Sequence record: OZ035771.1 | Reading direction: 5' to 3' (one strand) | Origin: Phapecoctavirus DIJ07P2 | DNA length: 64,000 bases | Shown here: in pieces, positions 39,458 to 60,247 of the stretch | How the letters are laid out: every line of letters begins with the position of its first letter | Position numbering within the stretch: position 1 is the first letter of the stretch | Made by a program: the position numbers and the translations under genes | Notes under the pieces: generated by a model | What the model saw: only the letters and a program-made list of their open reading frames with translations | What the model was told of the DNA's origin: nothing | The model's database searches: none

Positions 39458-39489
39458 CAGCGTTCAACCTCATACACTTGAAACAAACC

Positions 39490-42099: not shown

Positions 42100-44697
42100 T
42101 CAATGACAGGATGCCCAGGAATTACCCACATCATATCCGGCAGTAAGCTGAACATTAAGATTGTAAAATTCTCCAGCCTTAGTAACAGCTAAGGCAGCAA
42201 GTTCACCTGCCCGACTATAGGCTGTAAACCATCCACCTTTGGGAGATTCATGAATGTTAGCCCAAATTTGCCCTGTCTCTTTTTCCTTATTATGCTTCCA
42301 TTCTTCGACTTTAGCAAGGCATTCTTTATCAATCTTCTTTTGTTCTTCAGGATCGTCTACTTTCTTCCAACCTAATGATTCAGGTGAAAACCATTTAAAT
42401 TCTACAAGGTTACGAGAAACTTCAAGCTGGGCTTCATCGTGATATGCAATCATTTGTTGCACGAAATCTTTATTCTTCCAGTCATCTTTAAAGAAGTCAA
42501 CACTTAGTCCTTCTTCTTCGATCATGTCGTCATAAATAACCATTGCACGTTTAGCACAGATAACCCCACCACTTTGGAACAGAGAGTTAAGAATCGCGTG
42601 AGCAGAACGAGTAGGAACCTTACGACCGTCAATACCCAAAACATATTGTTTACCAGTCTTAACCCAAAAATCGTTTAAACGTTCTTTAAGACGCGCCAAT
42701 GGGAATGCAGCTTCCCAGAAAGCATCAAACACCAATTGACCTGTAAACTTATCGCTACCAATTGTTTTAGCAACCTTGTCGGCTTGTGCACCATAGGTAA
42801 TACCATACTTAACAGATTTAGCAGGACTACGTTCAAATTTACGTCCAATAGTTTCAGTGATACGTTTTGCCATCATTGTGTGAACATCGTTAGGTTTCTC
42901 TAACAACAGAGCGTTACAATATTCGTGTGGCTCCGGCTCGTACCGCCAACAGTAGTGTGATTCAATTTTTGCTTCCAAAGAGTCGAAGTCGTAGCCGATC
43001 TGGAAGTATTTAGGAACCTCTACACCAAACAAGTTACGCATCTCCCATCCAAACAAAGATGTGACACGAGGGATATTGGCTACAGACCTATGCTTCATAC
43101 GAGAGGTTGCAGCATCACATGTAGCGGCTGGGGTAGGAATACGCCCATCTGCCCTTACTGCGGCTAAGAAACCTTTATCGTATTCTTGATCTTCTTCATC
43201 TTCTTCCCAATCAGCACCGCCACCTAAAATAGAGTTCCTACGATGCTTATACGTTAAGTATTCTACAATCTGAGTAGCATAAGGAAATTTCTCACCCAAA
43301 GCTTGCAGGTTAGGACAAATTTCTTTTTCCTGACCTTTGGTAAAACATGGGTTAGTCAATACTTTAAGACCGCGACCTTTACCTTTTGCTATACGCTCTT
43401 GAATCTTCCTTTCCAAGGTTTCCGGTGTGCACTCCAGATGATCACAACGATCCTGACAAAAATTAGAAGATAGAGTTTGCTCAACGTAAGCTCGAATACC
43501 TTTCTGAAGTTCTTCCTCGCTCTTTTTAATCTTGGTGCCAGATTTAAGAGTCAAGTCTTTATCTTTATATTCAGACGGTACCCAACCTAATCCTACAAGC
43601 CAGTTTTTAATATGGGTTGTATCGTTCAATGTTGCAGGGATATTAGGATCACACAAAGGCTCATCTGCTGCAACTGGCAGTTTCCACTCTTTACCCAACA
43701 TAACTAACCACCAATCGCCATCCCTCTCTTCCAAATGACCATCATGTTTCTTAGCAAAATTGATCATATGGTTAGTTGGCTCTAAGTTCTTTTTAATTTG
43801 CAACTTAGGTGGAATAAAAGCCTTAAGATAACCTTTTGTTGCTGGTTTAGGTGGCAAAATAGGCTCAACGAGTAAACGAAGACGCTCCATTTCTGCATCC
43901 AAAAAAGCAAGGTTCTCTTCTGCTTGCTTCATGTTAAAAGCAAACCCACGGTGTTCCTGGCGTGTAATAATGTCTGCTACACGTTGTTCAAGTTCAAATG
44001 GACCTTCCCATTTATCATAATCACCCCATTCTTCCATGAGGTAATTATATACACTTGTGTTGGCTTTGTTATCATAGATACAGTAATAAAGCATATCCGC
44101 AGCAAAAGTCTTAAATCGATCTTCTTCTGGAATCTCTTTACGGAAATCTATTTTTACATCACCCCCTGCCTTTCGAGAAAGTGCTGCCAAGCTATGTCCT
44201 GATTTGCCCTCAATCTTTCGATCTGGGTTTAACACTTTACTCAAAATCAAGGAGTCAATAAGTTTTACCTTATTTTTGCCCCACGTATTATATTTAACAC
44301 TGTAATCTAAGCCATAAAACAGTTTTGTAGCCAACCAGTCATAGTTGATACCGTTGTGAGCCACAGCCATTTCAACCAGATATTCAGGCTTATCTTTAAA
44401 ATAACCTTCATGATTAATAAAGTCTGGGAAATCTTTTAGTTGAAAATGTGTGTAATCTTGCGCCACATACTCTTTAAGAACATATGTGTATTTACCATCT
44501 GACTCTTCATAAGGACGCCCATCAAAGATGTATTTAGGGCCATCGTGGAAAGCTACTATTTCTCCTGTTTCATGGTTCTCTAAGACAATACAGTGCATTT
44601 GAAATGTGTCTTTGAGACGATAAGGACTAGCTAAATAATCGATAGTATCATTATTCAACAATCCATTTGCTTCAATATCCCATGTAAACTTACTCAC
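42100..44697 (-). CDS. family A DNA polymerase (T7 gp5-like) with 3'-5' exonuclease domain
   Basis: 865 aa; N-terminal exo motif WDIEANGL; C-terminal region GIDGRKVPTRSAHAILNSLFQSGG...ending WASCH closely parallels the T7 DNA polymerase C-terminus (GLDGRKVHVRSPHAALNTLLQSAG...WAICH). Confidence 0.85.
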   Translation of the reverse strand: MSKFTWDIEANGLLNNDTIDYLASPYRLKDTFQMHCIVLENHETGEIVAFHDGPKYIFDGRPYEESDGKYTYVLKEYVAQDYTHFQLKDFPDFINHEGYFKDKPEYLVEMAVAHNGINYDWLATKLFYGLDYSVKYNTWGKNKVKLIDSLILSKVLNPDRKIEGKSGHSLAALSRKAGGDVKIDFRKEIPEEDRFKTFAADMLYYCIYDNKANTSVYNYLMEEWGDYDKWEGPFELEQRVADIITRQEHRGFAFNMKQAEENLAFLDAEMERLRLLVEPILPPKPATKGYLKAFIPPKLQIKKNLEPTNHMINFAKKHDGHLEERDGDWWLVMLGKEWKLPVAADEPLCDPNIPATLNDTTHIKNWLVGLGWVPSEYKDKDLTLKSGTKIKKSEEELQKGIRAYVEQTLSSNFCQDRCDHLECTPETLERKIQERIAKGKGRGLKVLTNPCFTKGQEKEICPNLQALGEKFPYATQIVEYLTYKHRRNSILGGGADWEEDEEDQEYDKGFLAAVRADGRIPTPAATCDAATSRMKHRSVANIPRVTSLFGWEMRNLFGVEVPKYFQIGYDFDSLEAKIESHYCWRYEPEPHEYCNALLLEKPNDVHTMMAKRITETIGRKFERSPAKSVKYGITYGAQADKVAKTIGSDKFTGQLVFDAFWEAAFPLARLKERLNDFWVKTGKQYVLGIDGRKVPTRSAHAILNSLFQSGGVICAKRAMVIYDDMIEEEGLSVDFFKDDWKNKDFVQQMIAYHDEAQLEVSRNLVEFKWFSPESLGWKKVDDPEEQKKIDKECLAKVEEWKHNKEKETGQIWANIHESPKGGWFTAYSRAGELAALAVTKAGEFYNLNVQLTAGYDVGNSWASCH

Positions 44698-45491
44698 TAT
44701 TCCTCCTTTCTAATGTTCTCCAGAACCCACTGAAGTTCTTTTAAACTTAAACTTCTTACTCCCGCAGTTTTACTAGCTTCAGTTTTAAGTAACGGGTAAG
44801 CCTCAATGATACGTGTTTTAAGATCAGAAGTCAAGGCTTTTAAAAAATAGGTAGATGCTTCAGATAAAGAATCTTCTTCTGTTAGCACTTTACCTGCGCT
44901 TGCTCCGGCTCTCCTAACGGCTATGTCGTAGTCTTTGCTGTTACCTAATACGAACAGTCGATTCTCTCCTAAAACAACGGGAGAACGCTTCTGGCTGCGT
45001 TTAATCCATATTTGGAATACACAAGGAACATCCCAAGGTTCTCCATGAAGAATAAAAGATCCTTTGGGACACTCTTCTTCGTGAAGAAGATGCATATAAG
45101 GATTTAGTTTGTGTGCAAAAAAGATTTTTTGAAATGTGCGAGGTAAGATAAAACAAATACCACCTTCGTTATCCAGCATTTCAGCGCAATGGTTAAAGAA
45201 CTTAATGGCAAGACTAGCGTTTTTTCCGAATGGAGGATTACCAACAAAAGCCGTTACACTACCAACAGACTCAACAGATTGAGCTAAAAAATCTGCCTCA
45301 ATACAATCTTCAAACTTAGGGTCAATATCAAAAGAAGTTATGTTTTTAAAGCAAGAAGAGAAAGCTCCTTCTCCCGCAGATGGTTCTACGTAGTTAGCTT
45401 CCTCTCCAAAAATTTCTTTGATCTTATCACATAAGAACCCCGCATAAGCGGGGTTAGTGTAATATTGATCAAGTGTGTTCAACTTGCTCAA
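44697..45491 (-). CDS. N6-adenine DNA methyltransferase (gamma-class-like)
   Basis: 264 aa; SAM-binding motif I VEPSAGEGAF followed by catalytic motif IV GNPPFG; stop overlaps DNA polymerase start by 1 nt (TAGTG). Confidence 0.65.
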   Translation of the reverse strand: MSKLNTLDQYYTNPAYAGFLCDKIKEIFGEEANYVEPSAGEGAFSSCFKNITSFDIDPKFEDCIEADFLAQSVESVGSVTAFVGNPPFGKNASLAIKFFNHCAEMLDNEGGICFILPRTFQKIFFAHKLNPYMHLLHEEECPKGSFILHGEPWDVPCVFQIWIKRSQKRSPVVLGENRLFVLGNSKDYDIAVRRAGASAGKVLTEEDSLSEASTYFLKALTSDLKTRIIEAYPLLKTEASKTAGVRSLSLKELQWVLENIRKEE

Positions 45492-46007: not shown

Positions 46008-46026
46008 TAAAAGGGCCGAAGCCCTT
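46008..46026 (-). terminator. stem-loop/terminator downstream of primase-helicase gene
   Basis: AAGGGC-CGAA-GCCCTT hairpin adjacent to the gene stop, followed on minus strand by TTATTAAAAATA; coordinates approximate (plus or minus 1-2 nt). Confidence 0.4.
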
Positions 46027-47803
46027 AGTAGTTGCTATCCGTAGGCAAATTAGCAGGATTGTTGAAATACTGCTCTTTGTCATGCAGAGTTGCAGTTCTA
46101 ATGTCATAGTAAAACTGCCCTGCTGGACCAGTCTCTGAGAACTCACGGTTTTTTAGGATAAAGCAATGAGTTGTATTACGTTCTACAGGGTCTTCAGCGG
46201 CTTTATCTCGTTCCAAAGCCAAAGTAATACCAGCGCCTTTAGCCAAGAAACTACTACCCATTGCATCGTCCTCTGTTAAGTGTTCATTGCCACCATTTGC
46301 CGATTTCTTAACGTGTGAGATGACGATAATAGTTATAGCATACTCTTTCATGATGCGCTTCAACCATGTTGCTAACTCTTCCTGGGCTTGAACATCCATA
46401 CCAGAAAGCAAATCAGAATAAGGGTCGATAACAAGAATTGTTACTCCAAAATAGATGATCATCTCCAAAACTTTTTCTTTGATAGACTCCACATCTGCTC
46501 CACGATCATCACACACATAAAAACGTGGTGATCCATCTTCTCTTTCGTAAAAATCTAGGATTTTTTCTTTATTCTCTTCCAAGATTTGAAATTTCTCTTC
46601 CGGTGTTTTCCTGTGTAGAGGAATATGCAGGAACGAGGACAACAGGTTACGAGAATATTTCTTATAAGTTGCTTCCAAGGACAGAATACCTAGGGTATGT
46701 TCTGGGTGCGCAACAATAATATGTTTGGTGATCTCGTTTACCATCAAAGTTTTACCGATACTGGTCTTTGCCAGGATGACTGTAATCTCTTCCTCTACTA
46801 AACCACCACCCAGCATATTTGCAGCAACACGCATAAAAGGAGGCAAGGTAATCATCTTGGATTCCAAGCATTCTAATGCAGCTTCATACAAGACATTAGA
46901 AGCATAAACACCTGCTGGGGTGTATAGACGAGCACTCCAAAAAGCTTTTACGAAATCTTTTGCACGACCTTCTTCCAGATACTGATTGGCATCCTTAAGA
47001 TCCATCTGCATACGGTAGACTTTGTTACGAGGCAGCACCTTAACAATATTTTCAAATGCCTCATTACCTGCTTTGTCATTATCCATGCAAACAATAATCT
47101 TCTTAAATTTTTCAAAGAAAGGGTATTGTGCCTGAACTTGTTTATACATACTGGTTTCACCAGTTGTGCCACTAACTACTGCTGGAAGTTCATATTTGTT
47201 GTCCAAGTTTTCAGACAGCATTTGATAAGCTGCCAGAGCATCGTGTTCACCACCTGTAATTACCACAGTATGAGAACGGTCTGCAAAACGAATTTGTCCA
47301 AAAAGATCTACATCTTTACCTACTTGACCAATAGGTTTACTGAAATCTTTAGGATGAATACGACGCTTAAAACCAACCAATTCTTTACCGATAGTAGTTG
47401 GATATAAACAACTTTCTACTACCATCTGATCCCCTTCCTGACGGTATTCATAACGAACACCATAGAAAGATGAAACTTTTTCTTTAATGCCTCGATAACC
47501 ACGTGGGTTGGTTGATGTTTCTTGAACAATTTTACGATGAATCTGTTTATTAAATTCCGAACCCACAATCTCCTCCTCTTCTTCTAAAACTTCACCATTT
47601 TCTCGTAACCATTCTACGCTAGGAATAGTGTATTCACACGCAAAGCACTTAGCACCTTTATGCTCTCCATTAGAATCTAATCCATAAACCATCAGGTTAT
47701 TACGAGAGCGATCCTTGCCATTTTTCATGCAGCGCGGACAACCTGTATGCCCTTCCTTGCTAAGATCAACATCAAATCCATATTTAGTTATAATGTGCGA
47801 CAC
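46025..47803 (-). CDS. DNA primase-helicase (T7 gp4-like)
   Basis: 592 aa; N-terminal zinc ribbon (CPRCMKNGKD...CFACEY); TOPRIM-like middle; C-terminal helicase with Walker A-like KTSIGKT and Walker B VIDPYSDL. Confidence 0.8.
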   Translation of the reverse strand: MSHIITKYGFDVDLSKEGHTGCPRCMKNGKDRSRNNLMVYGLDSNGEHKGAKCFACEYTIPSVEWLRENGEVLEEEEEIVGSEFNKQIHRKIVQETSTNPRGYRGIKEKVSSFYGVRYEYRQEGDQMVVESCLYPTTIGKELVGFKRRIHPKDFSKPIGQVGKDVDLFGQIRFADRSHTVVITGGEHDALAAYQMLSENLDNKYELPAVVSGTTGETSMYKQVQAQYPFFEKFKKIIVCMDNDKAGNEAFENIVKVLPRNKVYRMQMDLKDANQYLEEGRAKDFVKAFWSARLYTPAGVYASNVLYEAALECLESKMITLPPFMRVAANMLGGGLVEEEITVILAKTSIGKTLMVNEITKHIIVAHPEHTLGILSLEATYKKYSRNLLSSFLHIPLHRKTPEEKFQILEENKEKILDFYEREDGSPRFYVCDDRGADVESIKEKVLEMIIYFGVTILVIDPYSDLLSGMDVQAQEELATWLKRIMKEYAITIIVISHVKKSANGGNEHLTEDDAMGSSFLAKGAGITLALERDKAAEDPVERNTTHCFILKNREFSETGPAGQFYYDIRTATLHDKEQYFNNPANLPTDSNY

Positions 47804-47815
47804 TTTGTTCTCCTG

Positions 47816-48094
47816 TTAAAATGGTTCGTTAGTCTCCATCATATATTCTGCTTCTAGTTCTTCCATGTGCTTTCTAAATTGGAAAGCAATTTCTGCTACA
47901 GTTACATTTAAATCTTTTTCAAAAACTTCTGTAGATCCTTCATAAAAACGAATACCGTCAATTAAAAGCCCTCCGTGGTAATCCCAATCACTTTCACGAG
48001 AAAGCGGATTAGGTTCTTCATAATAGTAATCCACCTCCACAACCAAGGCTTTCCCGTTATGAGTGGTGTATTCAAAATCAAAAGTGTTAATCAT
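47816..48094 (-). CDS. hypothetical protein
   Basis: 92 aa ORF, stop overlaps downstream start. Confidence 0.3.
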   Translation of the reverse strand: MINTFDFEYTTHNGKALVVEVDYYYEEPNPLSRESDWDYHGGLLIDGIRFYEGSTEVFEKDLNVTVAEIAFQFRKHMEELEAEYMMETNEPF

Positions 48095-49038
48095 TATAGC
48101 TCCTCAAATAAAAGTCTACGACGCTCATTCAACACATCAATGTGATAATGAGTCCTGACATACTTAGCTAATGCTAATCCTTTCTCCATGCAAACATCGG
48201 GAGCACTTAATAAGTATTCCGTAATATCTTTCCACTCGGAAGGTGTTTCAGCAAAGAATAACAAATCTTTAAACTCTTGTGTATGATAATTCTCACGAGG
48301 AGAGCAGATTAAAGGTAAACCCTTAGCACCTGCCTCAAGAATTTTAAGATTGCTTTTTGCATTATTAAACACGTTATCGACCAATGGTGCAAGACTGATT
48401 TGATGACCATCGTAAGATTCCATGTAGTTGGCATATGGTCTTACACCTTCATAAACACTAGTTGGTGCTACATTTTCTCTAATTACAGACCATTCACGAC
48501 TACTTAAAACTTCAGAATCCCTACGAAAACCACATATTGTAAGATCTTTACCAAAATCGGGCAAGATAGCCAAATCTTGTTTATGTGTTTCACTTCCAGC
48601 CCAGACTAATGGAGTTTTGGAGTAGCGATCACGGGTCAACACAAATTGACCTTCATCATAAGGAAGTCCATTAGGGATTATGTGCACATTATCATTGTAT
48701 TGTGAAAGTTCAACTTGCAAGGCAGGTGTCGTAGTTGTAACAAGATCACTGTGCTCTAAAAACCATTTTAAATGTTCACGAATACCTGATTCAAAAATAC
48801 CTTCTAACATGTGTCCTTTTGGAATAACTAAAGAGTCATCCAAATCCATAACCATTTTAAAGCCCAGGTTTTTAAGGGCTAAAAAGCCCTCTTTACCTTT
48901 TGTTGGCACTCCGTTAAAAACGAAAACGTTGTGTTTAGGTTGTGAAGAGAACTGCCTTGAGTAAGGCAGCACTACCCTATGGAAATCGCAGACACTATAA
49001 TTGATTCCGTTATGATTGTCAAGAATTATTTGTCCCAT
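48094..49038 (-). CDS. glycosyltransferase-like protein, paralog 1 (GT-B-like C-terminal motif)
   Basis: 314 aa; shares CDxHR.V.P, DLDD, GQF.L..DR.S.TP.VWAG, APLVDN.FNN.KSNLKILEAGAKG.P..CS and HVRTHY blocks with adjacent ORF 49046..50032. Confidence 0.35.
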   Translation of the reverse strand: MGQIILDNHNGINYSVCDFHRVVLPYSRQFSSQPKHNVFVFNGVPTKGKEGFLALKNLGFKMVMDLDDSLVIPKGHMLEGIFESGIREHLKWFLEHSDLVTTTTPALQVELSQYNDNVHIIPNGLPYDEGQFVLTRDRYSKTPLVWAGSETHKQDLAILPDFGKDLTICGFRRDSEVLSSREWSVIRENVAPTSVYEGVRPYANYMESYDGHQISLAPLVDNVFNNAKSNLKILEAGAKGLPLICSPRENYHTQEFKDLLFFAETPSEWKDITEYLLSAPDVCMEKGLALAKYVRTHYHIDVLNERRRLLFEEL

Positions 49039-49045
49039 ACTTCAC

Positions 49046-50032
49046 CTACAAACTTTCAATAACCTGGCGTCGCAATTCGTTTGCATCTGCCAGATTATAA
49101 TGTGTTCGAACATGTTCCGCTAAGAACAAGCCGCGATCTTCCCGATAGTTCGGATTTCGAAGAAGCTTAACAATTTCGTAATGCCATTCTGCTTTATTCT
49201 CTGCATAAGCAACAGCGCGAGCATCTACAGGGTTAAAATAAGGTAATACCTTAGAACAAACAATCGGAATACCTTTTGCCCCAGCTTCAAGGATTTTGAG
49301 ATTACTTTTACAATTATTAAAATCATTATCTACCAAAGGAGCTATAGCAATAGCATGACTTTCGTAAACACTCATGTAATTATCTAAATCTTTTACAGCA
49401 GCTTTATATTTGGCATTTGGTAAATTTCTACGGATTTTAATCCACTCTTGCCCTGTGATACTCTGCGAAGCTTCATACCCCGCAATAGTAAGAAGTTCAT
49501 CATCAAAAGTGTTAGAGACTAGTCGTAAATCGGGTTCGTGACTAGCACCTCCAGCCCATACAATAGGGGTACCGGATGAACGATCATTTGACAAAGTGAA
49601 TTGTCCACTATCAAAAGGAAGTGCATTTCGGATCACAACAACATTCCTATTTAAGTGACGGATCTTATATGCCAAGTATTCCGTAGTCACAATAACCACA
49701 TCAGCAAGCTTAACCATAGCCACAATAGCATGAGTGTTTGACTCGTATAAACTTGCCAAATAATGCTCTGGATTAAGTTGGTAGAAATCATCTAAATCTA
49801 CAACAATCTTAACACCTTGACGTTTCAGGGACAGAACATATTCTGCCCCTTTAGAATGAATACGGTTAAACACGACAACATCTTTCTTAGGCTGAAAATT
49901 ATTGTTGTTAAATGGTACAACAATACGATGATAATCACAACCACTGTGAGGTTTTGCATCAATTTTCAGTTTAGTCCATTTTTTATTTGACATGTGCCAG
50001 TGCCTCCTCATAAGAAATTCGGATTTTCCCAT
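49046..50032 (-). CDS. glycosyltransferase-like protein, paralog 2
   Basis: 328 aa; same conserved blocks as 48094..49038 (tandem paralogs); EAGAKGIPIVCS resembles the GT-B nucleotide-sugar binding segment. Confidence 0.35.
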   Translation of the reverse strand: MGKSEFLMRRHWHMSNKKWTKLKIDAKPHSGCDYHRIVVPFNNNNFQPKKDVVVFNRIHSKGAEYVLSLKRQGVKIVVDLDDFYQLNPEHYLASLYESNTHAIVAMVKLADVVIVTTEYLAYKIRHLNRNVVVIRNALPFDSGQFTLSNDRSSGTPIVWAGGASHEPDLRLVSNTFDDELLTIAGYEASQSITGQEWIKIRRNLPNAKYKAAVKDLDNYMSVYESHAIAIAPLVDNDFNNCKSNLKILEAGAKGIPIVCSKVLPYFNPVDARAVAYAENKAEWHYEIVKLLRNPNYREDRGLFLAEHVRTHYNLADANELRRQVIESL

Positions 50033-50666
50033 TTTTAATATCTTCTAAAGACGCTTTATATTCTTCCCAGTTAATGCCAATAGCAGCTTCTTTCTCTTCT
50101 TTTGTCAGATTAGCAAAAGGCATAGGATTGTTTCCAAAAACATCGTCTGGGTGGATATAAGCCATGATACGAAGTGGACAAGGTATTGCCTGAATACCCT
50201 GATTCAAACCAGCAGCTTTCAAACGGTGTACCCATTCAGCATCTTCAAAACCATAACCGTGAGTGTAAGGGCGGAAATAACCCATCTTCTCAACAACGGC
50301 ACGAGAATACATTGCAAATTGACACATTGCAAGTTCCCAGAGAATAACTTCTCCTTTACTCCCAACAACTTTATCTTTGAAATACTCCGGCATACCAAAG
50401 AAATCCCATCCTCCAGAGACAGCTTGATCTACAAAATATGTTTCCCATCCCTCCATGATTGGGTAGCAATCGTCGTCAAAAATAAACCAATAATCATAAC
50501 CTTCTTCATAAAACTGGTGCATAAGTTCATTCCTGGCGTAAGCTACACCTTTACGATCTGGATCGTTGAATACTCGAAAATCTGCATGTGGATCTGTTAC
50601 AAGATAGTCTTTAAGTGGACGGACACCTACAGTGATAACACCCACTCCGATTTTAATATTTTCCAT
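49983..50666 (-). CDS. GT-A-like glycosyltransferase
   Basis: 227 aa; DxD-type motif FIFDDDCYP and downstream GYGFEDAEW acidic motif typical of GT-A fold enzymes. Confidence 0.4.
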   Translation of the reverse strand: MENIKIGVGVITVGVRPLKDYLVTDPHADFRVFNDPDRKGVAYARNELMHQFYEEGYDYWFIFDDDCYPIMEGWETYFVDQAVSGGWDFFGMPEYFKDKVVGSKGEVILWELAMCQFAMYSRAVVEKMGYFRPYTHGYGFEDAEWVHRLKAAGLNQGIQAIPCPLRIMAYIHPDDVFGNNPMPFANLTKEEKEAAIGINWEEYKASLEDIKNGKIRISYEEALAHVK

Positions 50667-50674
50667 TTTCTCTC

Positions 50675-51238
50675 CTAGATAGTTTTACTGTGATCGTGAC
50701 AGTGTAATAAATGATGTATAGACCGTTGAGGATTTGTTTGACCTAATCTGTAAATGTGAAACAGATACATTCCCCGCATCAATCCTAACCTCTTTCCTTT
50801 TTCATGTAAAGTGCGAGAGAAAATTAGGTCGAATTGGATAGATTTTTCTTCGAAAGGAATTTCATTCCACAATGATTTTCTAAAAAGCAAAAAGAAACCT
50901 GCCAGAGGTGTTCCGAAAGGAACTTCTTCAACACTCACTTTATGATATTCTCTTGCAATCTTAGCATATTCTATATGGTTTAGAATATCTGGATCATCGT
51001 TAATTTGGTTAGAGAAAAGCTGATAACCACTACCTAACCTGTTACAAGTTGCACCTATTACATCAAAAGGCGGGTTTGACATAACAAGCTCTTCAAGCAT
51101 AGATGGTTGATCAGGTAGGAGGAACATTGTATCGGTATCTCTTAAGCACACCCAACTATCATCTGGAAGAACGGCAATAGCTTCATTGATAGCCTTGCCG
51201 ATATTTCCTGTCAGATAGGGAGTAATATAATAAATCAT
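50675..51238 (-). CDS. hypothetical protein, possibly second GT-A-like enzyme
   Basis: 187 aa; CLRDTDTMFL acidic DxD-like motif; same operon as the glycosyltransferase genes. Confidence 0.3.
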   Translation of the reverse strand: MIYYITPYLTGNIGKAINEAIAVLPDDSWVCLRDTDTMFLLPDQPSMLEELVMSNPPFDVIGATCNRLGSGYQLFSNQINDDPDILNHIEYAKIAREYHKVSVEEVPFGTPLAGFFLLFRKSLWNEIPFEEKSIQFDLIFSRTLHEKGKRLGLMRGMYLFHIYRLGQTNPQRSIHHLLHCHDHSKTI

Positions 51239-51254
51239 TCTCCCCTCCGTTATA

Positions 51255-51446
51255 TTAACTGTCAGCTACAATCCCACGTTTAATCATCTCTTGTTGGATC
51301 TGGATCACACGATCTCGTGCTTCCATATATTCTTTAAAAGATTCTTGGAGATGATCACGAGCTACATCCCGTAGTTTAATCAGTTTGTCGTTTGTCACTT
51401 CTTGAAGAGAGATCTCGCCAGTTTCATTGGTCCCAAGCGTTTTCAT
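51255..51446 (-). CDS. hypothetical small coiled-coil protein
   Basis: 63 aa ORF. Confidence 0.25.
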   Translation of the reverse strand: MKTLGTNETGEISLQEVTNDKLIKLRDVARDHLQESFKEYMEARDRVIQIQQEMIKRGIVADS

Positions 51447-51939: not shown

Positions 51940-52461
51940 TTAACTCCCCTTTGGTAGATAGAAACCATGCACTTTATCTCGATAAACAAGACGCATATCA
52001 CGTTCCCAGTGTGTCCTTATATTCCGTTTCTTGAAGTATAGAGCACCTTTAGTAACATCTAAAACAGACCGCAATTCAGGAAAATGTTTCTCTAAATAAA
52101 GTAAACGCTCCGCTATTGCTTTTGCTTCCTGCCACTTATCTTTCTCTGTCACGTTAAAAGTTTTCGCATATGAGAATTGCCCTTTCTGGAACAAGACTCC
52201 TCTAACTGTGTTAGGGAAGTAGGTATCATTTCTTCTGTTGATTACCACATTCCCAACGGCATTCATTCCTTTTTTACCCAGACCGCGACCTTCTGCGTAA
52301 ATTGCACAAGCTAATAGAATTTTATCATTATATTGCTTTGTACATTTGTGAACTACTTTAGCGGTTTTTACGTTTGCAGCTTCGGCTTTCGCCACAACAG
52401 GTGTAAATGTAAAAGCAGTTAAGGATAGTAACGCAACTGTTACAAAGTTTTTTATCAGCAA
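51940..52461 (-). CDS. secreted cell wall hydrolase (SleB/CwlJ-like Hydrolase_2 family)
   Basis: 173 aa; N-terminal signal peptide (LLSLTAFTFTPVVAKA); AIYAEGRG...GMNAVGNVVINRR...FPNTVRGVLFQKGQFS resembles SleB-type lytic transglycosylase/amidase domain. Confidence 0.5.
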   Translation of the reverse strand: MLIKNFVTVALLSLTAFTFTPVVAKAEAANVKTAKVVHKCTKQYNDKILLACAIYAEGRGLGKKGMNAVGNVVINRRNDTYFPNTVRGVLFQKGQFSYAKTFNVTEKDKWQEAKAIAERLLYLEKHFPELRSVLDVTKGALYFKKRNIRTHWERDMRLVYRDKVHGFYLPKGS

Positions 52462-52562: not shown

Positions 52563-53165
52563 TTATGGACATTCATACCATTCTTTTTTACCACCGAAGG
52601 CCATCACCACATCACAAATATCCAGACCAGCTTTACCTACACCATATGCTTTCAGCTTCCATTCCCCATCTTCACGAACCAAGGAAGCCACGTGGCAGAT
52701 TGTGTTACCAGCTACTTCAGGAGCCAGGAAGTCAAAATCCAGAATTTCCACATTACGCTCGGAGTCGAAGATTTTAAGCATACCTTCAGAAGCATGACCA
52801 AAACGTTTCAGACCTGTATCATCATCAATGGTCAGAACAAAGGCAATCTCTTGTGCATCAGGAGAGATTTTAGCCAGAGTAATATCAATCTGCTCCATGC
52901 TGCCAGTCCCATCACGAACATCGTCACCAGCGAAGGTAGAACGTTCAGGATCAAACTTGTTAGCATAGCAAACCAGATGACGTGCGGACAGCATTTCAGG
53001 ATTGCCAGCGGCATTATGACGACAAACCAGTGCACTTACATCCAGATCCAGTTTAGAATCAGATTTCCAAGAGAATTCCAGGCGCAGTTCTTTCAGAGCC
53101 GGAGCAACTTTCTTCAGGGAAATTTTTTCGCTAGAGCCTTTTTTCAGGGAAATTTTATCAGTCAT
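52563..53165 (-). CDS. terD: TerD-family protein
   Basis: 200 aa; N-terminal duplicated KISLKK motif and overall TerD-like size and acidic pattern (FAGDDVRDGTGS, TIDDDTG); strongly host-optimal codon usage. Confidence 0.75.
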   Translation of the reverse strand: MTDKISLKKGSSEKISLKKVAPALKELRLEFSWKSDSKLDLDVSALVCRHNAAGNPEMLSARHLVCYANKFDPERSTFAGDDVRDGTGSMEQIDITLAKISPDAQEIAFVLTIDDDTGLKRFGHASEGMLKIFDSERNVEILDFDFLAPEVAGNTICHVASLVREDGEWKLKAYGVGKAGLDICDVVMAFGGKKEWYECP

Positions 53166-53180
53166 CTTTTGTCTCCTCTA

Positions 53181-53450
53181 TTATTTAAGTGTAATACCAG
53201 TTACAGTCAATTCTACTTCCAAAAGCTTAGATGTGTTTTGGATTGATACTAATTGTGCATGATGGTTTAGTTCTACAGCAGAATAATCATTTTCCCCATC
53301 ATCTACTTTTAAATAAACAATGATTTCACTAAGGTCTAAACCATTTTCGTCAAATGCATTTTCATAGACGAAAGTATCTCCTACATCCAAATCTTTAATG
53401 GTAAGGCATCGTTTATTTACTTTTTGCTCATCAATTTCGAAGTTTAACAC
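53181..53450 (-). CDS. small protein, paralog B of a duplicated family
   Basis: 89 aa; MLNFEIDEQK...DLDVGDTFVYENAFDENGLD...EVELTVTGITLK aligns with the protein at 54472..54750. Confidence 0.4.
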   Translation of the reverse strand: MLNFEIDEQKVNKRCLTIKDLDVGDTFVYENAFDENGLDLSEIIVYLKVDDGENDYSAVELNHHAQLVSIQNTSKLLEVELTVTGITLK

Positions 53451-53679
53451 TTCTTCCTCCTAATGTTATCTCCGGTTTGTATATACGAAGAATTATAGCA
53501 TTTTCATTTTCTTTGTCAACCCATTCTTCATAATCGGGCCATACATGAATCTCTACTCTACTTACAATATCTTCCATTCGCACAGTCCCAATGAAATACT
53601 CTTTGAGACTGCGCATAATGAAAGCTTCTCTCTCGCGCCAATAATTTTCTACGACTTGAGAGGCAAGCTCGTCGATCAT
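53431..53679 (-). CDS. hypothetical protein
   Basis: 82 aa ORF overlapping neighbours at both ends (translational coupling). Confidence 0.3.
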   Translation of the reverse strand: MIDELASQVVENYWREREAFIMRSLKEYFIGTVRMEDIVSRVEIHVWPDYEEWVDKENENAIILRIYKPEITLGGRSVKLRN

Positions 53680-54470
53680 TTTTTAGCACCTACTTTAACA
53701 ACCCACTCTCCGAACTCTTCAGATAAGAGTTTGTCATAAAGCTCTGAATCTGTCAAGTCTAAATCTTTAATGCCAATAAAACCAACATTATCATAAGCAT
53801 TTGCCAGTTCTTTCAGGAAGCCAAACTTCTCATTACCAACGCCAACCATGAACCAATAAATAGGTTTATTCTTATTCTCTTCAATAAGACGACGAACAGC
53901 ACTAGGATCACCATTCTCACCATCCGTCTGGAAGAATACAACACCAGGGGTAACGTCAGCACCTGGTTCAGATACAGCTACAACTTTTTCACGCTCTACA
54001 GACACTGTTTCAGTTTTACCAAGCAGACGATTAAAGAAGCCTTTCTTTGGAGCCTCCTCTTGTACCACTTGTTTAGTGGTAATATATTTGGTAACAGTGC
54101 CAAAATACTCATCGTAGATATCTGCCATTACAGGGGCGTAATTTGTTCCACCTCCGATACGAACATTGCGCATACATTTACCAACATAGTCATCGTAAAC
54201 GTCTGCTGTTGCTGGAGTAAGCTCTTGGGAACTCGTATTGAAGGCCCACATATCAATTTGTTGATTATCGTCGAACAGCATACCAAAAGGAAGCAGTTTA
54301 CCTACAAAATCACTCACTACCCCACTAGAATATAGGCCATGCATACTACCAGAAATATCTAGAGCACATGCTACACGAAGAACAATCTTACCTTCATTCA
54401 GGTTCTTATTCTTTTTCAGAGAGAAAGCAAGGTTTTCTTGACGTTTTTTCAGGCTGATTTTCTCGGACAT
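53676..54470 (-). CDS. vWA-domain protein with TerD-like N-terminus (TerY-like)
   Basis: 264 aa; N-terminal MSEKISLKK...FSLKK; MIDAS motif VACALDISGSM with downstream T and D residues (GGGTNY, FFQTDGENGD). Confidence 0.65.
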   Translation of the reverse strand: MSEKISLKKRQENLAFSLKKNKNLNEGKIVLRVACALDISGSMHGLYSSGVVSDFVGKLLPFGMLFDDNQQIDMWAFNTSSQELTPATADVYDDYVGKCMRNVRIGGGTNYAPVMADIYDEYFGTVTKYITTKQVVQEEAPKKGFFNRLLGKTETVSVEREKVVAVSEPGADVTPGVVFFQTDGENGDPSAVRRLIEENKNKPIYWFMVGVGNEKFGFLKELANAYDNVGFIGIKDLDLTDSELYDKLLSEEFGEWVVKVGAKK

Positions 54471-54471
54471 A

Positions 54472-54750
54472 TTATTTCTCCTTCTTAAGTGTAATATTGG
54501 TAACTTCTAAATCTACTTCCACCATATTTGTATCTGGCGGGATGCAATGAGTATAGCCTCGTTGTGCTAGTGATCCATTAATACAGATCGCACTGTTTGT
54601 GGAATTTTTAATGAACACCAAGTTACGGTAGGTATCCAACCCTGCGTCTTCATAGGCATCATAATACATGAATGTGTCCCCTATGCCAAGGTCTTCGAAA
54701 GCAATAGGTAAATCCTGACACTTTTCTTCTTGAATATTGAATCTAAACAC
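54472..54750 (-). CDS. small protein, paralog A of the duplicated family
   Basis: GTG start 5 nt after AGGAGG gives MFRFNIQEEK...DLGIGDTFMYYDAYEDAGLD...EVDLEVTNITLKKEK, collinear with 53181..53450. Confidence 0.4.
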   Translation of the reverse strand: MFRFNIQEEKCQDLPIAFEDLGIGDTFMYYDAYEDAGLDTYRNLVFIKNSTNSAICINGSLAQRGYTHCIPPDTNMVEVDLEVTNITLKKEK

Positions 54751-55306
54751 GCATACCTCCTCTACCAATTTTGAAGCCCAAATCGTAAGCTTCCTTAGTG
54801 ATCTTTTGTAACTCACTTATAGAAAGTGTTACAAGAGGATCATCTTCTTCAATTTCCATCTTGTCATCTTCTGTTTCAATGAGAGTATTATGCACTTTGT
54901 GATAAGGGTTGTCAACACGTTTAAACTTATTCTTTTCTGTGCTGAAAAAACAATCTGGATCTTCTTCACCATCACCCCAACCTTGGTTAGGATCTCCGTC
55001 AGATTGTTCTGTAGGGATTTCACCTGTAAAGTACTTTTCCAGCACCATAGCGATACCGTCTCTTGGATTTGAGGAATGCATTAAATCACAAACCTTACCC
55101 CAATCCATAGCCCATTCGAACCGTTCACGAACGCCATTTTCATCCTCCTTTCCAGAGAAAACACAACCATAACTATCATAGTTGCCATACATCTCTTCAA
55201 TAACAACACCATCCTTCAAAAGAAAGAGATAGCAAGGTGATCCGTCGAAAGAAGTAGAAAGGGCAGCTTTGCCCGATTCCTTACACAAAAAGCTAAAACA
55301 ACCCAT
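54743..55306 (-). CDS. hypothetical acidic protein
   Basis: 187 aa ORF; stop overlaps next start. Confidence 0.3.
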   Translation of the reverse strand: MGCFSFLCKESGKAALSTSFDGSPCYLFLLKDGVVIEEMYGNYDSYGCVFSGKEDENGVRERFEWAMDWGKVCDLMHSSNPRDGIAMVLEKYFTGEIPTEQSDGDPNQGWGDGEEDPDCFFSTEKNKFKRVDNPYHKVHNTLIETEDDKMEIEEDDPLVTLSISELQKITKEAYDLGFKIGRGGMRV

Positions 55307-55503
55307 TACAAACCCTCCTTCAGATTATCAAGAGCTATAGTGGTTTCACAAAAGTCTCCATACGCTTTATGATGTTCTAGAAAAGCTTCAGGTCCACCCC
55401 AATCATTATCTTGTGTATTCCAACCATCAATAAAAGCATCTTCAATGATTGTGATCAGTTCCTGTCGAGTCAACGTAATGGTATCAGGTTTTGGATTATG
55501 CAT
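55306..55503 (-). CDS. hypothetical small protein
   Basis: 65 aa ORF; start overlaps upstream stop (ATGCATAA). Confidence 0.25.
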   Translation of the reverse strand: MHNPKPDTITLTRQELITIIEDAFIDGWNTQDNDWGGPEAFLEHHKAYGDFCETTIALDNLKEGL

Positions 55504-55669
55504 CTTCTTCCTCCTCTAAAATACGAAACCCATAGTTACAATAGTCCTGAAAGGTTTCGTGTGCAAGATCTTCTATATCCTCTTGAGACATATCATCTTC
55601 AATTTCGATATCCACAACCTCATTGCATCCACACCAAGCAGTTTCAATATTCACTCGTAAAGTTTTCAT
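55496..55669 (-). CDS. hypothetical small acidic protein (57 aa)
   Basis: ORF below the track size cutoff; start overlaps upstream stop (ATGA), end overlaps next start; fits the chain of coupled small genes. Confidence 0.2.
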   Translation of the reverse strand: MKTLRVNIETAWCGCNEVVDIEIEDDMSQEDIEDLAHETFQDYCNYGFRILEEEEDA

Positions 55670-55872
55670 TCTTCTTCCTCATTAAATTCCACATCAGAAA
55701 TAACTTTAAATCTACCAAAGTTACGACAACCTTCATAGATATATCCATCACGACAAGCTGCAAAAATATCTGGAGTTTGTAGCTGGGTCATTGGGGCAAA
55801 GCGTTTCTCTTCGTCATAACGAACACCTATTTCTCCAGCTTGTTCGTCAAGCATGTATACACGGATTCTCAT
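55666..55872 (-). CDS. hypothetical small protein
   Basis: 68 aa ORF; start overlaps upstream stop. Confidence 0.25.
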   Translation of the reverse strand: MRIRVYMLDEQAGEIGVRYDEEKRFAPMTQLQTPDIFAACRDGYIYEGCRNFGRFKVISDVEFNEEEE

Positions 55873-56981
55873 TTACCCAACCCCTTCTTAACAGCGTCAA
55901 CCATCCCATCTTCGAGAGATTGAACTTCATTGATATAATCAACACGGGCAGCACGGGCTTCCGTATTGATGCGGTTAGTTTCTTCCAACATCTTAACCAA
56001 GTTTTCCTGATCGTGACGCAGAGTTTCAATATCCAACACTTGACGGTTAGCCAGTGCTGCTGCTTCGATCTGATTCTGTGTGGCAAGATCGCTACCCAGT
56101 TTAATTGCCAGGTTAAATTCATCAAGAACGTTATTCTGTGTCTCTGCGGCTTTCATTTGACGTAAGCTCTCAATATACATTGAGAAGTTAGCAGAGTAAG
56201 CAGGAATAACATTATTTACTATGTTACGCGCAGATCGCATTAAGCTTGCAGAAACTTTTTGCATACCTTGCACACGTGGTCCCATTTGGACACACAGTAG
56301 GCGCAATGCTTTTAAATCCGCAATACGAATCTCCAGAAGATCCAAAGTATCTCGGATCGCTTGTCGCTGTTCTACCGCATCTTCTGGAAGAGCAGCCAAA
56401 GCTTGTTCTTCTTTTTCATAGGTTGCTGTTAGAAGCTGCATATCTCGGTTCAAACTTGCAGCATATTGTCCAATAGCTTGATGTAGCTTTTCAAGATATA
56501 CCAAGGAATCTTCTTCTTTGCGAATATCCATTTGAAGGTTCTTTACCAACTCTTCAATACGGTTATTAACATTATCAAACTCCCCAAACAGGTCTTCTTT
56601 CATACCCATAACTTTTTTAATGAGTTTAGTAATACCTTTGCTTTGTTTAATAGAGTTTGGATCAAGTTGTTTTGCCTGTTTAATCAAAGCTGTGAGTCGT
56701 TCACTCATCTGATCGCCTTGATTACTACGTTGATGTTTTAATACCTCGGCATTCAAGGAACGCAAGGTTGTTCCTGCCTCTGCCCCGATCTCTTCGATCT
56801 CTTGTCGTGTCATAGAAGGTAAAACTGGAACTTCTTGCGGTGCCGCTGGTGCATAAACAGGACTGGCATCTAACACGCTTGGAGCGAATACAGATTTACT
56901 TGCATCTGTTGTTGCAGCAAATACGCTCATTTCAGGTTTCTTCTGACAGCCAGTAGCTGCTTTTAAAAATGGACTTGTCAT
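55869..56981 (-). CDS. TelA-like (toxic anion resistance family) alpha-helical protein
   Basis: 370 aa, predominantly helical/coiled-coil, size and genomic association with TerD/TerC consistent with TelA-type proteins; family assignment from memory, not searched. Confidence 0.4.
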   Translation of the reverse strand: MTSPFLKAATGCQKKPEMSVFAATTDASKSVFAPSVLDASPVYAPAAPQEVPVLPSMTRQEIEEIGAEAGTTLRSLNAEVLKHQRSNQGDQMSERLTALIKQAKQLDPNSIKQSKGITKLIKKVMGMKEDLFGEFDNVNNRIEELVKNLQMDIRKEEDSLVYLEKLHQAIGQYAASLNRDMQLLTATYEKEEQALAALPEDAVEQRQAIRDTLDLLEIRIADLKALRLLCVQMGPRVQGMQKVSASLMRSARNIVNNVIPAYSANFSMYIESLRQMKAAETQNNVLDEFNLAIKLGSDLATQNQIEAAALANRQVLDIETLRHDQENLVKMLEETNRINTEARAARVDYINEVQSLEDGMVDAVKKGLGK

Positions 56982-57568
56982 TCTTCATTCTCCTCTTCTG
57001 CATCTCTTATATATGGTGAAACACCGTACTCTTTAGCTACTTTAACCCAATCGTCCCATTTATACAACCATAATTTTCCTTCGGTCCCTTCTTTATCTGA
57101 TTTCAACCACATATTAGGTTGCTTACCTGGGTACATGCGATTAGGTTTACGATTATAACCTCTAACACATCTTGTCGCAAACCTATCTACCAGAACAAGA
57201 ACATATTTATATTCGTGGTTCAACGGCTCTTTGGAAGTGGCTTTAGGATTAGCCCCTAACTCTGCTGCCAGTTTTTGCCAATGAGCACCGTGTCTACTAA
57301 ACTTACCCATACAACCATCAATAGCATGAGCAATTTCGTGCTTCATTGTATCCACGATCATATCTCTTGTAGAGTTCTTATGCAAGTGCCAATTTACAAC
57401 AACAATTTTATCTCGGTAATTGCACCAACCAAAAGAGTTATTCACTTTGTTTCTAACGCAAGCTTTATATCCTGCTTCACGTAACATGTTGTAGTAAACA
57501 GGAAAATCTTCTTTTATTTCCTGCATCACTTCCCACCACAAGAGTTGCAAGTCTCTCTCGGTATGCAT
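56978..57568 (-). CDS. SprT-like zinc metallopeptidase
   Basis: 196 aa; HEIAHAIDG (HExxH) zinc-binding motif in a SprT-like context; basic C-terminal region. Confidence 0.45.
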   Translation of the reverse strand: MHTERDLQLLWWEVMQEIKEDFPVYYNMLREAGYKACVRNKVNNSFGWCNYRDKIVVVNWHLHKNSTRDMIVDTMKHEIAHAIDGCMGKFSRHGAHWQKLAAELGANPKATSKEPLNHEYKYVLVLVDRFATRCVRGYNRKPNRMYPGKQPNMWLKSDKEGTEGKLWLYKWDDWVKVAKEYGVSPYIRDAEEENEE

Positions 57569-57571
57569 AAC

Positions 57572-58165
57572 TTACACCTTAAAAGTGAAATGCGTGGTCG
57601 TGGCTTCAAAATCAGGACCAGATAAACGTGCACTGAAATCTGAAATATTTGTAATTAAAAAGCTTTTATGCATACCTAACACAGCCACGCTTTCAATATC
57701 TTCTACTAACATTTCAATCATGTTAGAAACATGGCTGAACGTAGGGTTTTGTTTTTTGATGGTGTAGAAAGAAAGATTCCCACCTGCTGTATAAGATACC
57801 TCTTCAAAATCTTTAATCGTATATTGTGTGCCATCAGTAAAGAAAATGGTAGCTTTATTAGTAGCACGTTTCTTGTTTTTTGGTCCTTTTTTACGTTTAC
57901 TGCGAGTAGGCAAACCGTTTGGGAACACCATAGCTACAAATTCTTCAGGAGAAACCTCCTTACCGAAATCATAACCATAAGAAACAGCGTCTATAAACTC
58001 GTCGTCTTCATTTTTAAAATAATGAAAATAGGGCCAATTTGAGAGATTATCGAGCATCTTATGCTCATCCACAGCAGAGAACGTATCCCTCAAAGCACGT
58101 GTGATTTGCAAAGCATTAGGCAAACTTTTAACACCTGTAATGGAAGTACGAATAGAAATTGTCAT
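57572..58165 (-). CDS. hypothetical protein
   Basis: 197 aa ORF; basic KRKKGPKNKKR segment. Confidence 0.3.
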   Translation of the reverse strand: MTISIRTSITGVKSLPNALQITRALRDTFSAVDEHKMLDNLSNWPYFHYFKNEDDEFIDAVSYGYDFGKEVSPEEFVAMVFPNGLPTRSKRKKGPKNKKRATNKATIFFTDGTQYTIKDFEEVSYTAGGNLSFYTIKKQNPTFSHVSNMIEMLVEDIESVAVLGMHKSFLITNISDFSARLSGPDFEATTTHFTFKV

Positions 58166-58179
58166 TGTTTTTCTCCTTA

Positions 58180-58617
58180 TTAACGTCGCTTGCTACGAGA
58201 TGAACTCTTTTTACTTAAAGGGCTATTGTAAGATTTACGAGTTGTATAGCTACTATTTGTTTTAAAAGTTTGTCTCGGCTTTTCATAAGTTTTTGTCTCT
58301 TGTTTAGGCTTACCATAAAAATTAGTTTTCGGTTTAGGTGTATTATAATGCTTATTAATAATCGTTCTGTTATCGTTATAATCCCCGCCACTACGATTAC
58401 TACCACCGCTCATCATATGCCCTAACAACATACCTGTAGCAAACTCACCAACACCGCTACTACTAGAACCGCCACCATTGTTGATAATAGTTGTATCTCC
58501 ATCAGATCCTTGTTGGGCGTATTGTTGAGGAGGTTGTTGGTATTGTGCAGGATTTGTTTCATCCTCGCAAGCTGTTAAAAAGATACAACCAATTAAAATC
58601 AGGGCTAGTTTTTTCAT
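58180..58617 (-). CDS. Gly-rich basic lipoprotein
   Basis: Start at internal ATG after GAGGA RBS; signal peptide MKKLALILIGCIFLTAC with lipobox; Q/G/S-rich then K/R-rich C-terminus. Confidence 0.4.
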   Translation of the reverse strand: MKKLALILIGCIFLTACEDETNPAQYQQPPQQYAQQGSDGDTTIINNGGGSSSSGVGEFATGMLLGHMMSGGSNRSGGDYNDNRTIINKHYNTPKPKTNFYGKPKQETKTYEKPRQTFKTNSSYTTRKSYNSPLSKKSSSRSKRR

Positions 58618-59151: not shown

Positions 59152-59159
59152 AAGTCTCT

Positions 59160-59186
59160 CCTATAAAATAGCCTCCCGAAGGAGGC
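59160..59186 (-). terminator. rho-independent terminator downstream of terC
   Basis: GCCTCC-CGAA-GGAGGC hairpin; on minus strand followed by TATTTTATAG. Confidence 0.55.
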
Positions 59187-59193
59187 TCATCTA

Positions 59194-60168: not shown

Positions 60169-60185
60169 TCTTTTCTCCTCTCTTT

Positions 60186-60244: not shown

Positions 60245-60247
60245 CAC

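Follow-up and report, generated by a model that had tools for sequence, protein, structure and literature searches.

In this study, we analyzed a stretch of 64,000 nucleotides of the phage Phapecoctavirus DIJ07P2 (sequence record OZ035771.1, hereafter the window), and more precisely four adjacent genes of its minus strand whose products are all glycosyltransferases (GTs), as supported by profile, structure-prediction or bridging-homolog evidence. The pair formed by one GT of the GT-A fold and one GT of the GT-B fold turned out to be a phage-restricted cassette, usually located just upstream of the terminase genes, which is newly shown here. Our preferred explanation, which stays tentative, is that the cluster builds a short and probably rhamnose-containing glycan on an acceptor other than DNA, most likely a phage protein.

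According to this proposal, four soluble Leloir GTs, co-transcribed as two GT2-like GT-A enzymes and then two GT4-like GT-B enzymes, would act in series and give a short oligosaccharide. The glycan would probably include L-rhamnose, taken from the dTDP-rhamnose supplied by the rmlABCD genes of the phage. Its acceptor would be, instead of bulk phage DNA, most likely a protein made during infection, for example a component of the virion or of its assembly, and the system would thus be the coliphage counterpart of the virion glycosylation of mycobacteriophages and giant viruses. Protein glycosylation was absent from the alternatives listed in an earlier note on this DNA, made from the sequence alone, which named a small-molecule product and host surface polysaccharide, and the rmlABCD genes lie beyond the window on which that note was based.

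Fold and Family of the Four Proteins

The earlier note had placed four GT-like genes at 48094-51238, and all four minus-strand open reading frames (ORFs) are present there; in the order of transcription, we refer to them as GT187, GT-A, GTB2 and GTB1 (Table 1). The cluster is already known, and dozens of genomes have it annotated. Over 47800-51300, the identity to 64 deposited Phapecoctavirus genomes (phAPEC8-like myoviruses of the Stephanstirmvirinae) is 97-99%, the closest being Escherichia phage vB_EcoM_ESCO25 (99.0% identity). Each of the four genes is labelled "glycosyltransferase" in the RefSeq record of phage ESCO5. Orthologs gp163-gp166 of phage phi92 (GenBank FR775895.2) all carry GT-fold labels, in order "trehalose-synthase TRET fold", "GT-B fold", "polypeptide N-acetylgalactosaminyltransferase 2 fold" and "glycosyl-transferase fold", and phi92-like GenBank records have the same four GT genes, with an identity of 76% for GTB1. 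For this window itself, our analysis thus adds little beyond the existing annotation, and no demonstrated function was found in the literature for these GT genes in Phapecoctavirus, phi92 or Stephanstirmvirinae. A paper that describes glycoprotein staining of phage JEP7 was set aside, as it does not give the genus of that phage.

The GT identity proposed in the earlier note holds for the four proteins, including the two that it had described as a GT-A-like protein with a DxD motif and as a further DxD-containing protein. The first of these, GT-A (227 aa), has a single Rossmann-like GT-A fold with its DxD in the sequence FIFDDD; its match to the Pfam GT2 family PF00535 (13 bits) lies below the gathering cutoff of 23.3. 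The second, GT187, matched phrog_14179 "glycosyltransferase" (8.5e-113) and had no direct sequence match in Pfam, NCBIfam or PDB. Its profile search gathered a family of 982 cluster representatives, and its D34-x-D36 motif is invariant. In fused relatives of GT187, the homologous domain was recognized as Glycos_transf_2 (2.2e-11) or Glyco_tranf_2_5 (1.7e-4), next to partner domains of the TOD1/MUCI70-type GT, other GT2 or Methyltransf_24 kinds. With this caveat of an indirect assignment, we accept GT187 as a probable minimal GT2-like enzyme. The fused forms, with their extra GT and methyltransferase domains, resemble glycan-assembly enzymes, which favors the proposed glycan. Profile-profile comparison detected no relation between the 187-aa and the 227-aa families.

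Both GT-B paralogs show two Rossmann-like domains and an inter-domain cleft. GTB1 scored 24.9 bits against PF13524, just under the cutoff of 25, and the Pfam matches of GTB2 were weak and did not reach the cutoffs (PF13524, 20.6 bits; PF13692, 22.6 bits vs. 27). Many GT-B homologs do have precomputed PF13524 matches, and GTB2 matched phrog_7162 at 1.4e-148. Searching PDB and NCBIfam directly with the GT sequences returned nothing useful. The best structural neighbors of GTB1 include sucrose-phosphate synthase, BshA, TreT, GlgM, a tetrahydrobiopterin GT and SenB. Among those of the cassette GTs are also enzymes of virus or protein glycosylation (ppGalNAc-T, GtfA, SdgB, PBCV-1 A064R domain 1, SpsA), in line with a protein acceptor. 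No transmembrane (TM) segment was predicted in any of the four GTs (maximum 19-residue Kyte-Doolittle hydropathy of at most 1.65). The isoelectric point (pI) is 8.5 for GTB2 and 4.9-6.0 for the three others, and charge and pI do not discriminate between readings.

The earlier note had also described tandem paralogs of 314 and 328 aa with shared blocks and an EAGAKG.P motif. The paralogy and the motif stand, as the two products share 42% identity across 303 residues (E 9e-78) and both contain K-I-L-E-A-G-A-K-G-(L/I)-P. The length of 328 aa does not: the most likely start of GTB2 is the ATG at 49993, with a GAGGAGG Shine-Dalgarno sequence 9 nt upstream, which equals the 948-nt gene of the ESCO5 RefSeq record, gives 315 aa and makes GTB2 overlap the stop codon of GT-A by 11 nt. 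GTB1 and GTB2 both keep 59/59 of the positions conserved in the family, and thus both are probably active, as far as their sequences tell. The conserved donor-binding motif of the C-domain is likewise in place: K228, K232, E235 and G-A-K-G-x-P, which are invariant or nearly so across 32 homologs and present in both paralogs, may have a catalytic role. A pair of active and inactive paralogs of the GtfA/GtfB type was ruled out, both copies having kept all conserved residues. GTB2 is the paralog nearer to the GT-B homologs that other phages have in a single copy. The single GT-B homolog of a Serratia prophage is closer to GTB2 (51% identical) than to GTB1 (39%), which suggests that GTB1 is a diverged duplicate.

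The Cassette in Other Phages

Scanning of IMG/VR revealed at least 558 stretches encoding relatives, and 85 related loci were analyzed with our own ORF calling and clustering. GT-A lies immediately upstream of GT-B in 51/85 loci. The trio recurs, in unchanged order, in the HK97-like prophage of Serratia sp. M24T3, where a lysis cassette and HNH/terminase/capsid genes flank it; the prophage proteins of 180, 209 and 306 aa are 41%, 37% and 39-51% identical to those of the window. In lambdoid and P22-like contigs, GT-A and GT-B are flanked by the Q antiterminator/ant region on one side and the holin-lysozyme genes on the other, or else by terminase and portal. TerS/TerL genes were found 2-3 kb downstream of the cassette in 31/85 loci, a sugar-type hexapeptide acyltransferase in 31/85 and a 158-aa sigma/HTH-like putative late activator in 42/85, and recombination or replication genes (ERF, DnaA-C HTH, DUF1376, exonuclease) occur upstream. 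A C5-cytosine methylase was present in 10/85 loci and a ThyA homolog in 1/85; TET was absent from the 20 most frequent neighbor families of these loci. This gene order suggests that, in the small phages, the cassette is expressed together with the morphogenesis genes, and its genes seem to be among those that open the late operon.

Bacterial genomes taken one per species (185,579 species) yielded only 19 loci, in Pseudomonas, Devosia, Ideonella, Chitinophagaceae, Sphingobacteriaceae and Acetivibrio. All 17 that were examined have the same prophage-like gene order, and none has the layout of an O-antigen, capsule or flagellin island. We interpret the cassette as an autonomous, phage-restricted module for building a glycan, to which a third and a fourth enzyme were added in the Stephanstirmvirinae, alongside the rhamnose pathway.

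Two small proteins of the related loci deserve mention. The ~158-aa protein cited above (L087:4181-4657 in our locus numbering, and 41 other loci) has no Pfam or PHROG match and carries a C-terminal helix-turn-helix (HTH)-like segment that resembles sigma region 4 by eye. In many small phages, its gene is directly upstream of the cassette and of the terminase genes, so it is probably a late-gene activator. Also, 52 of ~100 more distant GT-B loci encode a protein of ~75-90 aa with 2-3 TM segments and the motif (K/R)PFxCxxC(L/M)xxW (e.g., L043:9375-9614, L112:7535-7768), on the same strand and at most ~2.4 kb upstream of GT-B in 40/42 loci measured. This PFxCxxC protein belongs to no Pfam family, and Stephanstirmvirinae lack it. 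Searches with hidden Markov models found no counterpart of the small-phage partners (the late-activator-like protein, c3_140, c7_252, the hexapeptide acyltransferase and the PFxCxxC protein) in the window or ESCO5, and these partners are therefore not transferable to the present phage.

Rhamnose Pathway

A complete rmlABCD set is present in ESCO5 at 30.5-33.8 kb of the genome, outside the window and ~75 kb away from the GT cassette. Within the Stephanstirmvirinae, the genomes that encode an RmlC homolog are about the same as those that have the GT cluster; among them are the BASEL phage PaulScherrer and Klebsiella phage KP13-26. It is from this co-occurrence that we infer the use of rhamnose by any of the four GTs.

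Nature of the Acceptor

We rank a protein acceptor first, the host envelope second, and a small molecule or sparse glycosylation of DNA next. The first rank of a protein is based on the restriction of the cassette to phages and its position beside packaging and morphogenesis genes, and on the precedents for virion glycosylation by a virus-encoded nucleotide-sugar pathway with several soluble GTs. Such precedents are found in mycobacteriophages, chloroviruses and mimiviruses.

Several points weigh against this reading. The retaining GT4-like enzymes are not the usual rhamnosyltransferases. The acceptors of mycobacteriophages have Ser/Thr-rich tails, and the structural proteins of the window have no marked one: the enrichment is modest (at most 11/20 residues) and none forms a clear C-terminal tail. 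In the present phage, the cassette lies among replication genes and not structural ones, and the promoter scan showed no enrichment. Moreover, the 2026 cryo-electron microscopy paper on phi92, with atomic models covering head, connector and tail as well as the baseplate, contains none of six glycan-related terms, which speaks against glycans that are ordered and stoichiometric on the major proteins; glycans on the fibers or flexible tails of phi92 are possible.

It is also conceivable, though unlikely, that the sugars are added at the cytoplasmic face to a lipid-linked or core glycan of the host envelope, i.e., the lipopolysaccharide (LPS) core, the enterobacterial common antigen (ECA) or an O-unit on undecaprenyl pyrophosphate, and mask or cap the phage receptors. 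Superinfection exclusion or protection of progeny from debris would then follow; alternatively, the undecaprenyl carrier would be sequestered. This would fit the receptors of Stephanstirmvirinae, which are ECA and LPS-core glycans (PMC8594841), as well as the moron-type positions of the cassette in temperate phages, and the PFxCxxC protein upstream of GT-B hints at membrane-associated chemistry in the distant clade. However, this protein is absent here, the four GTs have no TM segment, and no flippase, polymerase or Gtr-type partner accompanies them. The subfamily is found only in phage or prophage-like contexts, in hosts with unrelated envelopes (Enterobacterales, Pseudomonas, Chitinophagaceae, Devosia, Ideonella, Acetivibrio), and the acceptor-side residues of the N-domain are conserved despite these differences. 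Also, an apparently late position just upstream of the terminase would leave little time for a glycan to reach the surface, and lysogenic conversion makes no sense in a virulent phage.

We consider it improbable that the acceptor is a soluble metabolite, such as the nucleoside-like product proposed for the Ter/phosphoribosyltransferase (PRTase)/HAD genes, a compatible solute, or an immune signal or toxin of the host. Such an acceptor would account for the conservation across phages of unrelated hosts, and the GTB1 neighbors named above are soluble enzymes with small acceptors. Also, TerD is 1.3 kb away, with TerC, TelA, PRTase and HAD within 12 kb, and this adjacency is kept in metagenomic relatives. 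Nevertheless, no Ter, PRTase or HAD gene accompanied the cassette in any of the small-phage or prophage contexts examined, four GTs and a rhamnose pathway represent heavy machinery for a metabolite, and we know of no phage precedent. Glycosylation of tRNA queuosine, an idea resting on the analogy with eukaryotic GT4/GT2 enzymes, was dropped as no gene supports it.

DNA as a Candidate Acceptor

The reading favored by the earlier note was the glycosylation of DNA bases to evade restriction. A similar idea was published in 2020, when Olsen et al. noted the rhamnose pathway and proposed rhamnosylation of hydroxymethylated nucleotides (PMC7552041), and it was functionally disfavored in 2021. Our analysis leaves it unsupported, given the HincII cutting, the sensitivity to restriction-modification (RM) systems, the absence of ThyA and TET/JBP from what was searched and the sub-threshold similarity to DNA GTs detailed below. 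Blanket, protective glycosylation of DNA in this phage is very unlikely.

Restriction fragment length polymorphism with HincII typed 39/42 phages of a collection that holds ESCO25 and further Phapecoctavirus isolates, in the study from which ESCO25, ESCO5, ESCO13 and REC come (PMC10269720). Among the three uncut phages (ESCO10, ESCO47, ESCO58), the genera given for ESCO47 and ESCO58 are Dhakavirus and Tequatrovirus, hence at least two are T-even relatives; the paper counts three Tevenvirinae genomes in its set (PMC10269720). Also, in the work of Maffei et al. (2021), the phi92-like Bas60-62 were "exceptionally susceptible" to RM systems in spite of their putative dTDP glycosylation machinery (PMC8594841), and phi92-like records have the same four GTs together with rml genes.

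The glycosylated bases known so far require either a hydroxymethylase or hydroxylase homologous to ThyA (PMC13326640) or a methylase combined with TET (bioRxiv 10.1101/2023.12.21.572611). Using phmmer and an E. coli ThyA query, we found no ThyA homolog in the window or the fetched ESCO5 stretches, which together cover ~90% of the genome; the one match among the 85 related loci (1e-37) served as positive control. The thymidylate synthase of the phage is of the ThyX type (PF02511). No TET/JBP domain was detected among 30 window and ESCO5 proteins in a non-exhaustive scan against Pfam, and temperate phages with the same cassette show no base-hydroxylating gene in the regions seen.

The transfer of rhamnose or another sugar onto a base with a hydroxyl or hydroxymethyl group, possibly at sparse or sequence-specific sites only, is as improbable to us as a metabolite acceptor. 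In its favor, GT-A resembles the TAGT family PF20691, as does its lambdoid-phage homolog, and matches phrog_842 (T-even beta-glucosyl-HMC-alpha-glucosyltransferase) at 5.4e-6. However, the TAGT scores are 19.2 bits (E 1.3e-3, over 36 residues around the DxD) and 21.2 bits (E 3e-4), both under the Pfam cutoff of 27.5, and these TAGT and T-even similarities are sub-threshold and centered on the DxD region. Likewise, the fold search with GT-B listed the T4 alpha-GT, the T4 beta-GT and a GT chain of HY126, a phage with arabinosylated 5-hydroxycytosine, but these DNA GTs came below at least 17 generic GT4 enzymes, and a TAGT-named protein ranked 35th in BFVD. The gene context also offers some arguments: the cluster adjoins the primase-helicase, an N6-adenine-methylase-like gene and the DNA polymerase, the C5-cytosine methylase of 10/85 related loci lies ~3.4 kb upstream, and neighbors such as ParB, terminase and methylase resemble those around DNA-modifying GTs (bioRxiv 10.1101/2023.12.21.572611). 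Moreover, DNA is an acceptor common to phages of unrelated hosts.

It is less probable still that the cassette installs a sparse or sequence-specific sugar, possibly rhamnose, on DNA without a ThyA- or TET-type hydroxylase. An unrecognized hydroxylase, such as the unusually long ThyX-like protein, could then operate, and the mark would have a role beyond blanket anti-restriction, e.g., in packaging, self-marking or evasion of a specific defense, and neither HincII nor RM assays would reveal it. The GT-A and GT-B pair spread upstream of terminase genes would in that case represent a new and widespread modification.

With regard to the ThyX-type synthase of ESCO5 (L002:39755-40753), the protein has 332 aa, of which the Thy1 profile covers residues 22-175 (E 1.6e-8), and the next annotated gene is an NT5C-like 5'-nucleotidase. 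We also noticed, abutting the DNA polymerase gene of the window, a 264-aa protein with a VGNPPFG motif and weak matches to Eco57I methylase and phrog_799 "DNA methyltransferase". It is a probable N6-adenine DNA methyltransferase, and may be the only DNA modification of this phage.

Operon Layout and Neighborhood

Table 1. Location of the GT cluster and of neighboring features in the window.
Feature	Coordinates	Strand	Description
GT187	50675..51238	-	187 aa; probable minimal GT2-like GT-A enzyme; first cassette gene
GT-A	49983..50666	-	227 aa; GT2-like; FIFDDD (DxD) and YGFED motifs
GTB2	49046..49993	-	315 aa; upstream GT-B paralog; maximal ORF to 50032 (328 aa)
GTB1	48094..49038	-	314 aa; downstream GT-B paralog; GT4-like (CgeB-type PF13524)
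Acidic ORF	47816..48094	-	92 aa; pI 4.2; after GTB1
Primase-helicase	46025-47803		downstream side of the cluster
VGNPPFG protein	44697-45491	-	264 aa; probable N6-adenine DNA methyltransferase
DNA polymerase	42100-44697	-	865 aa
SleB-type hydrolase	51940-52461	-	PF07486, 1.9e-17
Ter-type gene set	52563-62445	-	members below, and HAD hydrolases
TerD	52563-53165	-	
vWA-TerF	53676-54470	-	
TelA-like	55869-56981	-	
TerC-like	59194-60168	-	
PRTase	60969-61796	-	

The genes of the cluster are separated by 7-8 nt or overlap, every gene has its own Shine-Dalgarno sequence, and a sequence scan found no terminator-like site between the four. Scans for promoters and terminators gave no enrichment relative to shuffled sequence, and the timing of the operon is therefore not inferable from them. 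The 92-aa acidic ORF, whose ATG overlaps the GTB1 stop codon (TAATG), would be co-transcribed with the cluster, and its membership in the cassette is uncertain. It matches phrog_4240 (function unknown; 1.1e-32) and no Pfam family, and both ESCO5 and phi92 (gp162) have a hypothetical gene in the equivalent place.

The earlier note had situated the cluster between the primase-helicase and nucleotide metabolism genes. The primase-helicase lies downstream, beyond the acidic ORF. Upstream come three small ORFs, a SleB-like endolysin and the TerD, vWA-TerF, TelA and TerC-type genes, and the PRTase/HAD and anaerobic ribonucleotide reductase (Nrd) genes are located 9-12 kb further upstream, beyond the Ter-type genes. 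The order of this Ter-type set, found here in a virulent phage, is kept in ESCO5 and metagenomic relatives. It resembles the bacterial neighborhoods of a "Ter-dependent stress response / nucleoside-like metabolite".

Other features of the window were observed in passing. The SleB-type cell-wall hydrolase, which the ESCO5 record labels as endolysin, has a Sec-type signal-like sequence at its start, MLIKNFVTVALLSLTAFTFTPVVAKAEA, and lies on the same strand ~0.7 kb upstream of the GT cassette, amid "replication-side" genes. The DNA polymerase of ESCO5 (L001:13566-16898) has 1110 aa, i.e., an in-frame insertion of 244 aa after residue 583 which is absent from the window phage and looks intein-like; its flanks are 99.8-100% identical. 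At ~39400-40400, gene orientation and GC skew change sign, and near 40 kb the plus-strand tail and tail-fiber genes converge on the minus-strand replication-side block. Also, Campylobacter phages B15, A110a and C3, Acinetobacter phage vB_AbaM_ABPW7, Klebsiella phage ZCKP1 and a Pseudomonas phage show 97-99% identity to E. coli Phapecoctavirus/Justusliebigvirus across the GT region, and the host labels of these records look doubtful, unless the host range is remarkably wide.

Significance and Comparison with Known Systems

Phapecoctavirus and phi92-like phages, which are common candidates for therapy and have a broad host range, devote ~7 kb (four GTs and rmlABCD) to glycosylation. To our knowledge, no virion glycosylation has been known in coliphages before. 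A virion protein target would thus be the first case, with a bearing on the stability, immunogenicity and pharmacokinetics of therapeutic phages. A target in the host envelope would instead represent a new receptor-masking strategy of a virulent phage. As the GT-A and GT-B pair is widespread (at least 558 viral contigs), one case solved in a BASEL phage, which is tractable, would bring an annotation to many genomes.

The T4-type alpha-GT/beta-GT systems and the arabinosyl-5-hydroxycytosine systems of RB69/HY126 require a ThyA-homolog hydroxymethylase or hydroxylase and make DNA resistant to restriction (PMC13326640). In contrast, no ThyA homolog was found here, HincII cut all but three phages of the collection with the 99%-identical ESCO25, phi92-like relatives are hypersensitive to RM systems and generic GT4 enzymes are structurally closer. 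According to Pyle et al., ~65% of viral GT contigs are "less likely" to be DNA-modifying (bioRxiv 10.1101/2023.12.21.572611), and the present cluster falls there. With TAGT clusters it shares the GT-A fold with DxD, a weak profile similarity and, in small phages, neighbors such as ParB, terminase and sometimes a C5-methylase. It differs from them in its sub-threshold scores (19.2 and 21.2 bits vs. 27.5), in that no TET/JBP was seen, and in that the C5-methylase, limited to 10/85 loci, is not adjacent here.

Gtr seroconversion relies on the integral membrane proteins GtrA, GtrB and a type-specific Gtr, acting via undecaprenyl phosphate glucose. Like the envelope reading, Gtr modules involve a phage-encoded glycosylation that alters a surface glycan receptor, but they consist of membrane proteins, whereas the four GTs have no TM segment and the present phage is virulent. 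In the glycosylation of the Bacillus subtilis spore crust, rml-type sps genes, SpsA and CgeB take part; this is a cellular system, and the resemblance is at family level only (PF13524, 24.9 vs. 25 bits). PBCV-1 A064R is a rhamnosyltransferase/methyltransferase in the capsid and fibril glycosylation of giant viruses, but these are eukaryotic viruses with another rhamnose pathway, and the similarity is limited to a generic GT-A one.

Finally, Freeman and colleagues, cited in PMC12894461, reportedly described virion glycosylation in mycobacteriophages in 2023. No homology to those GTs was established, and no Ser/Thr-rich tails were seen in the structural proteins of the window. Nevertheless, both systems have soluble phage GTs without any host-envelope logic, and in many relatives of the present cluster the cassette is likewise near or with the morphogenesis genes.

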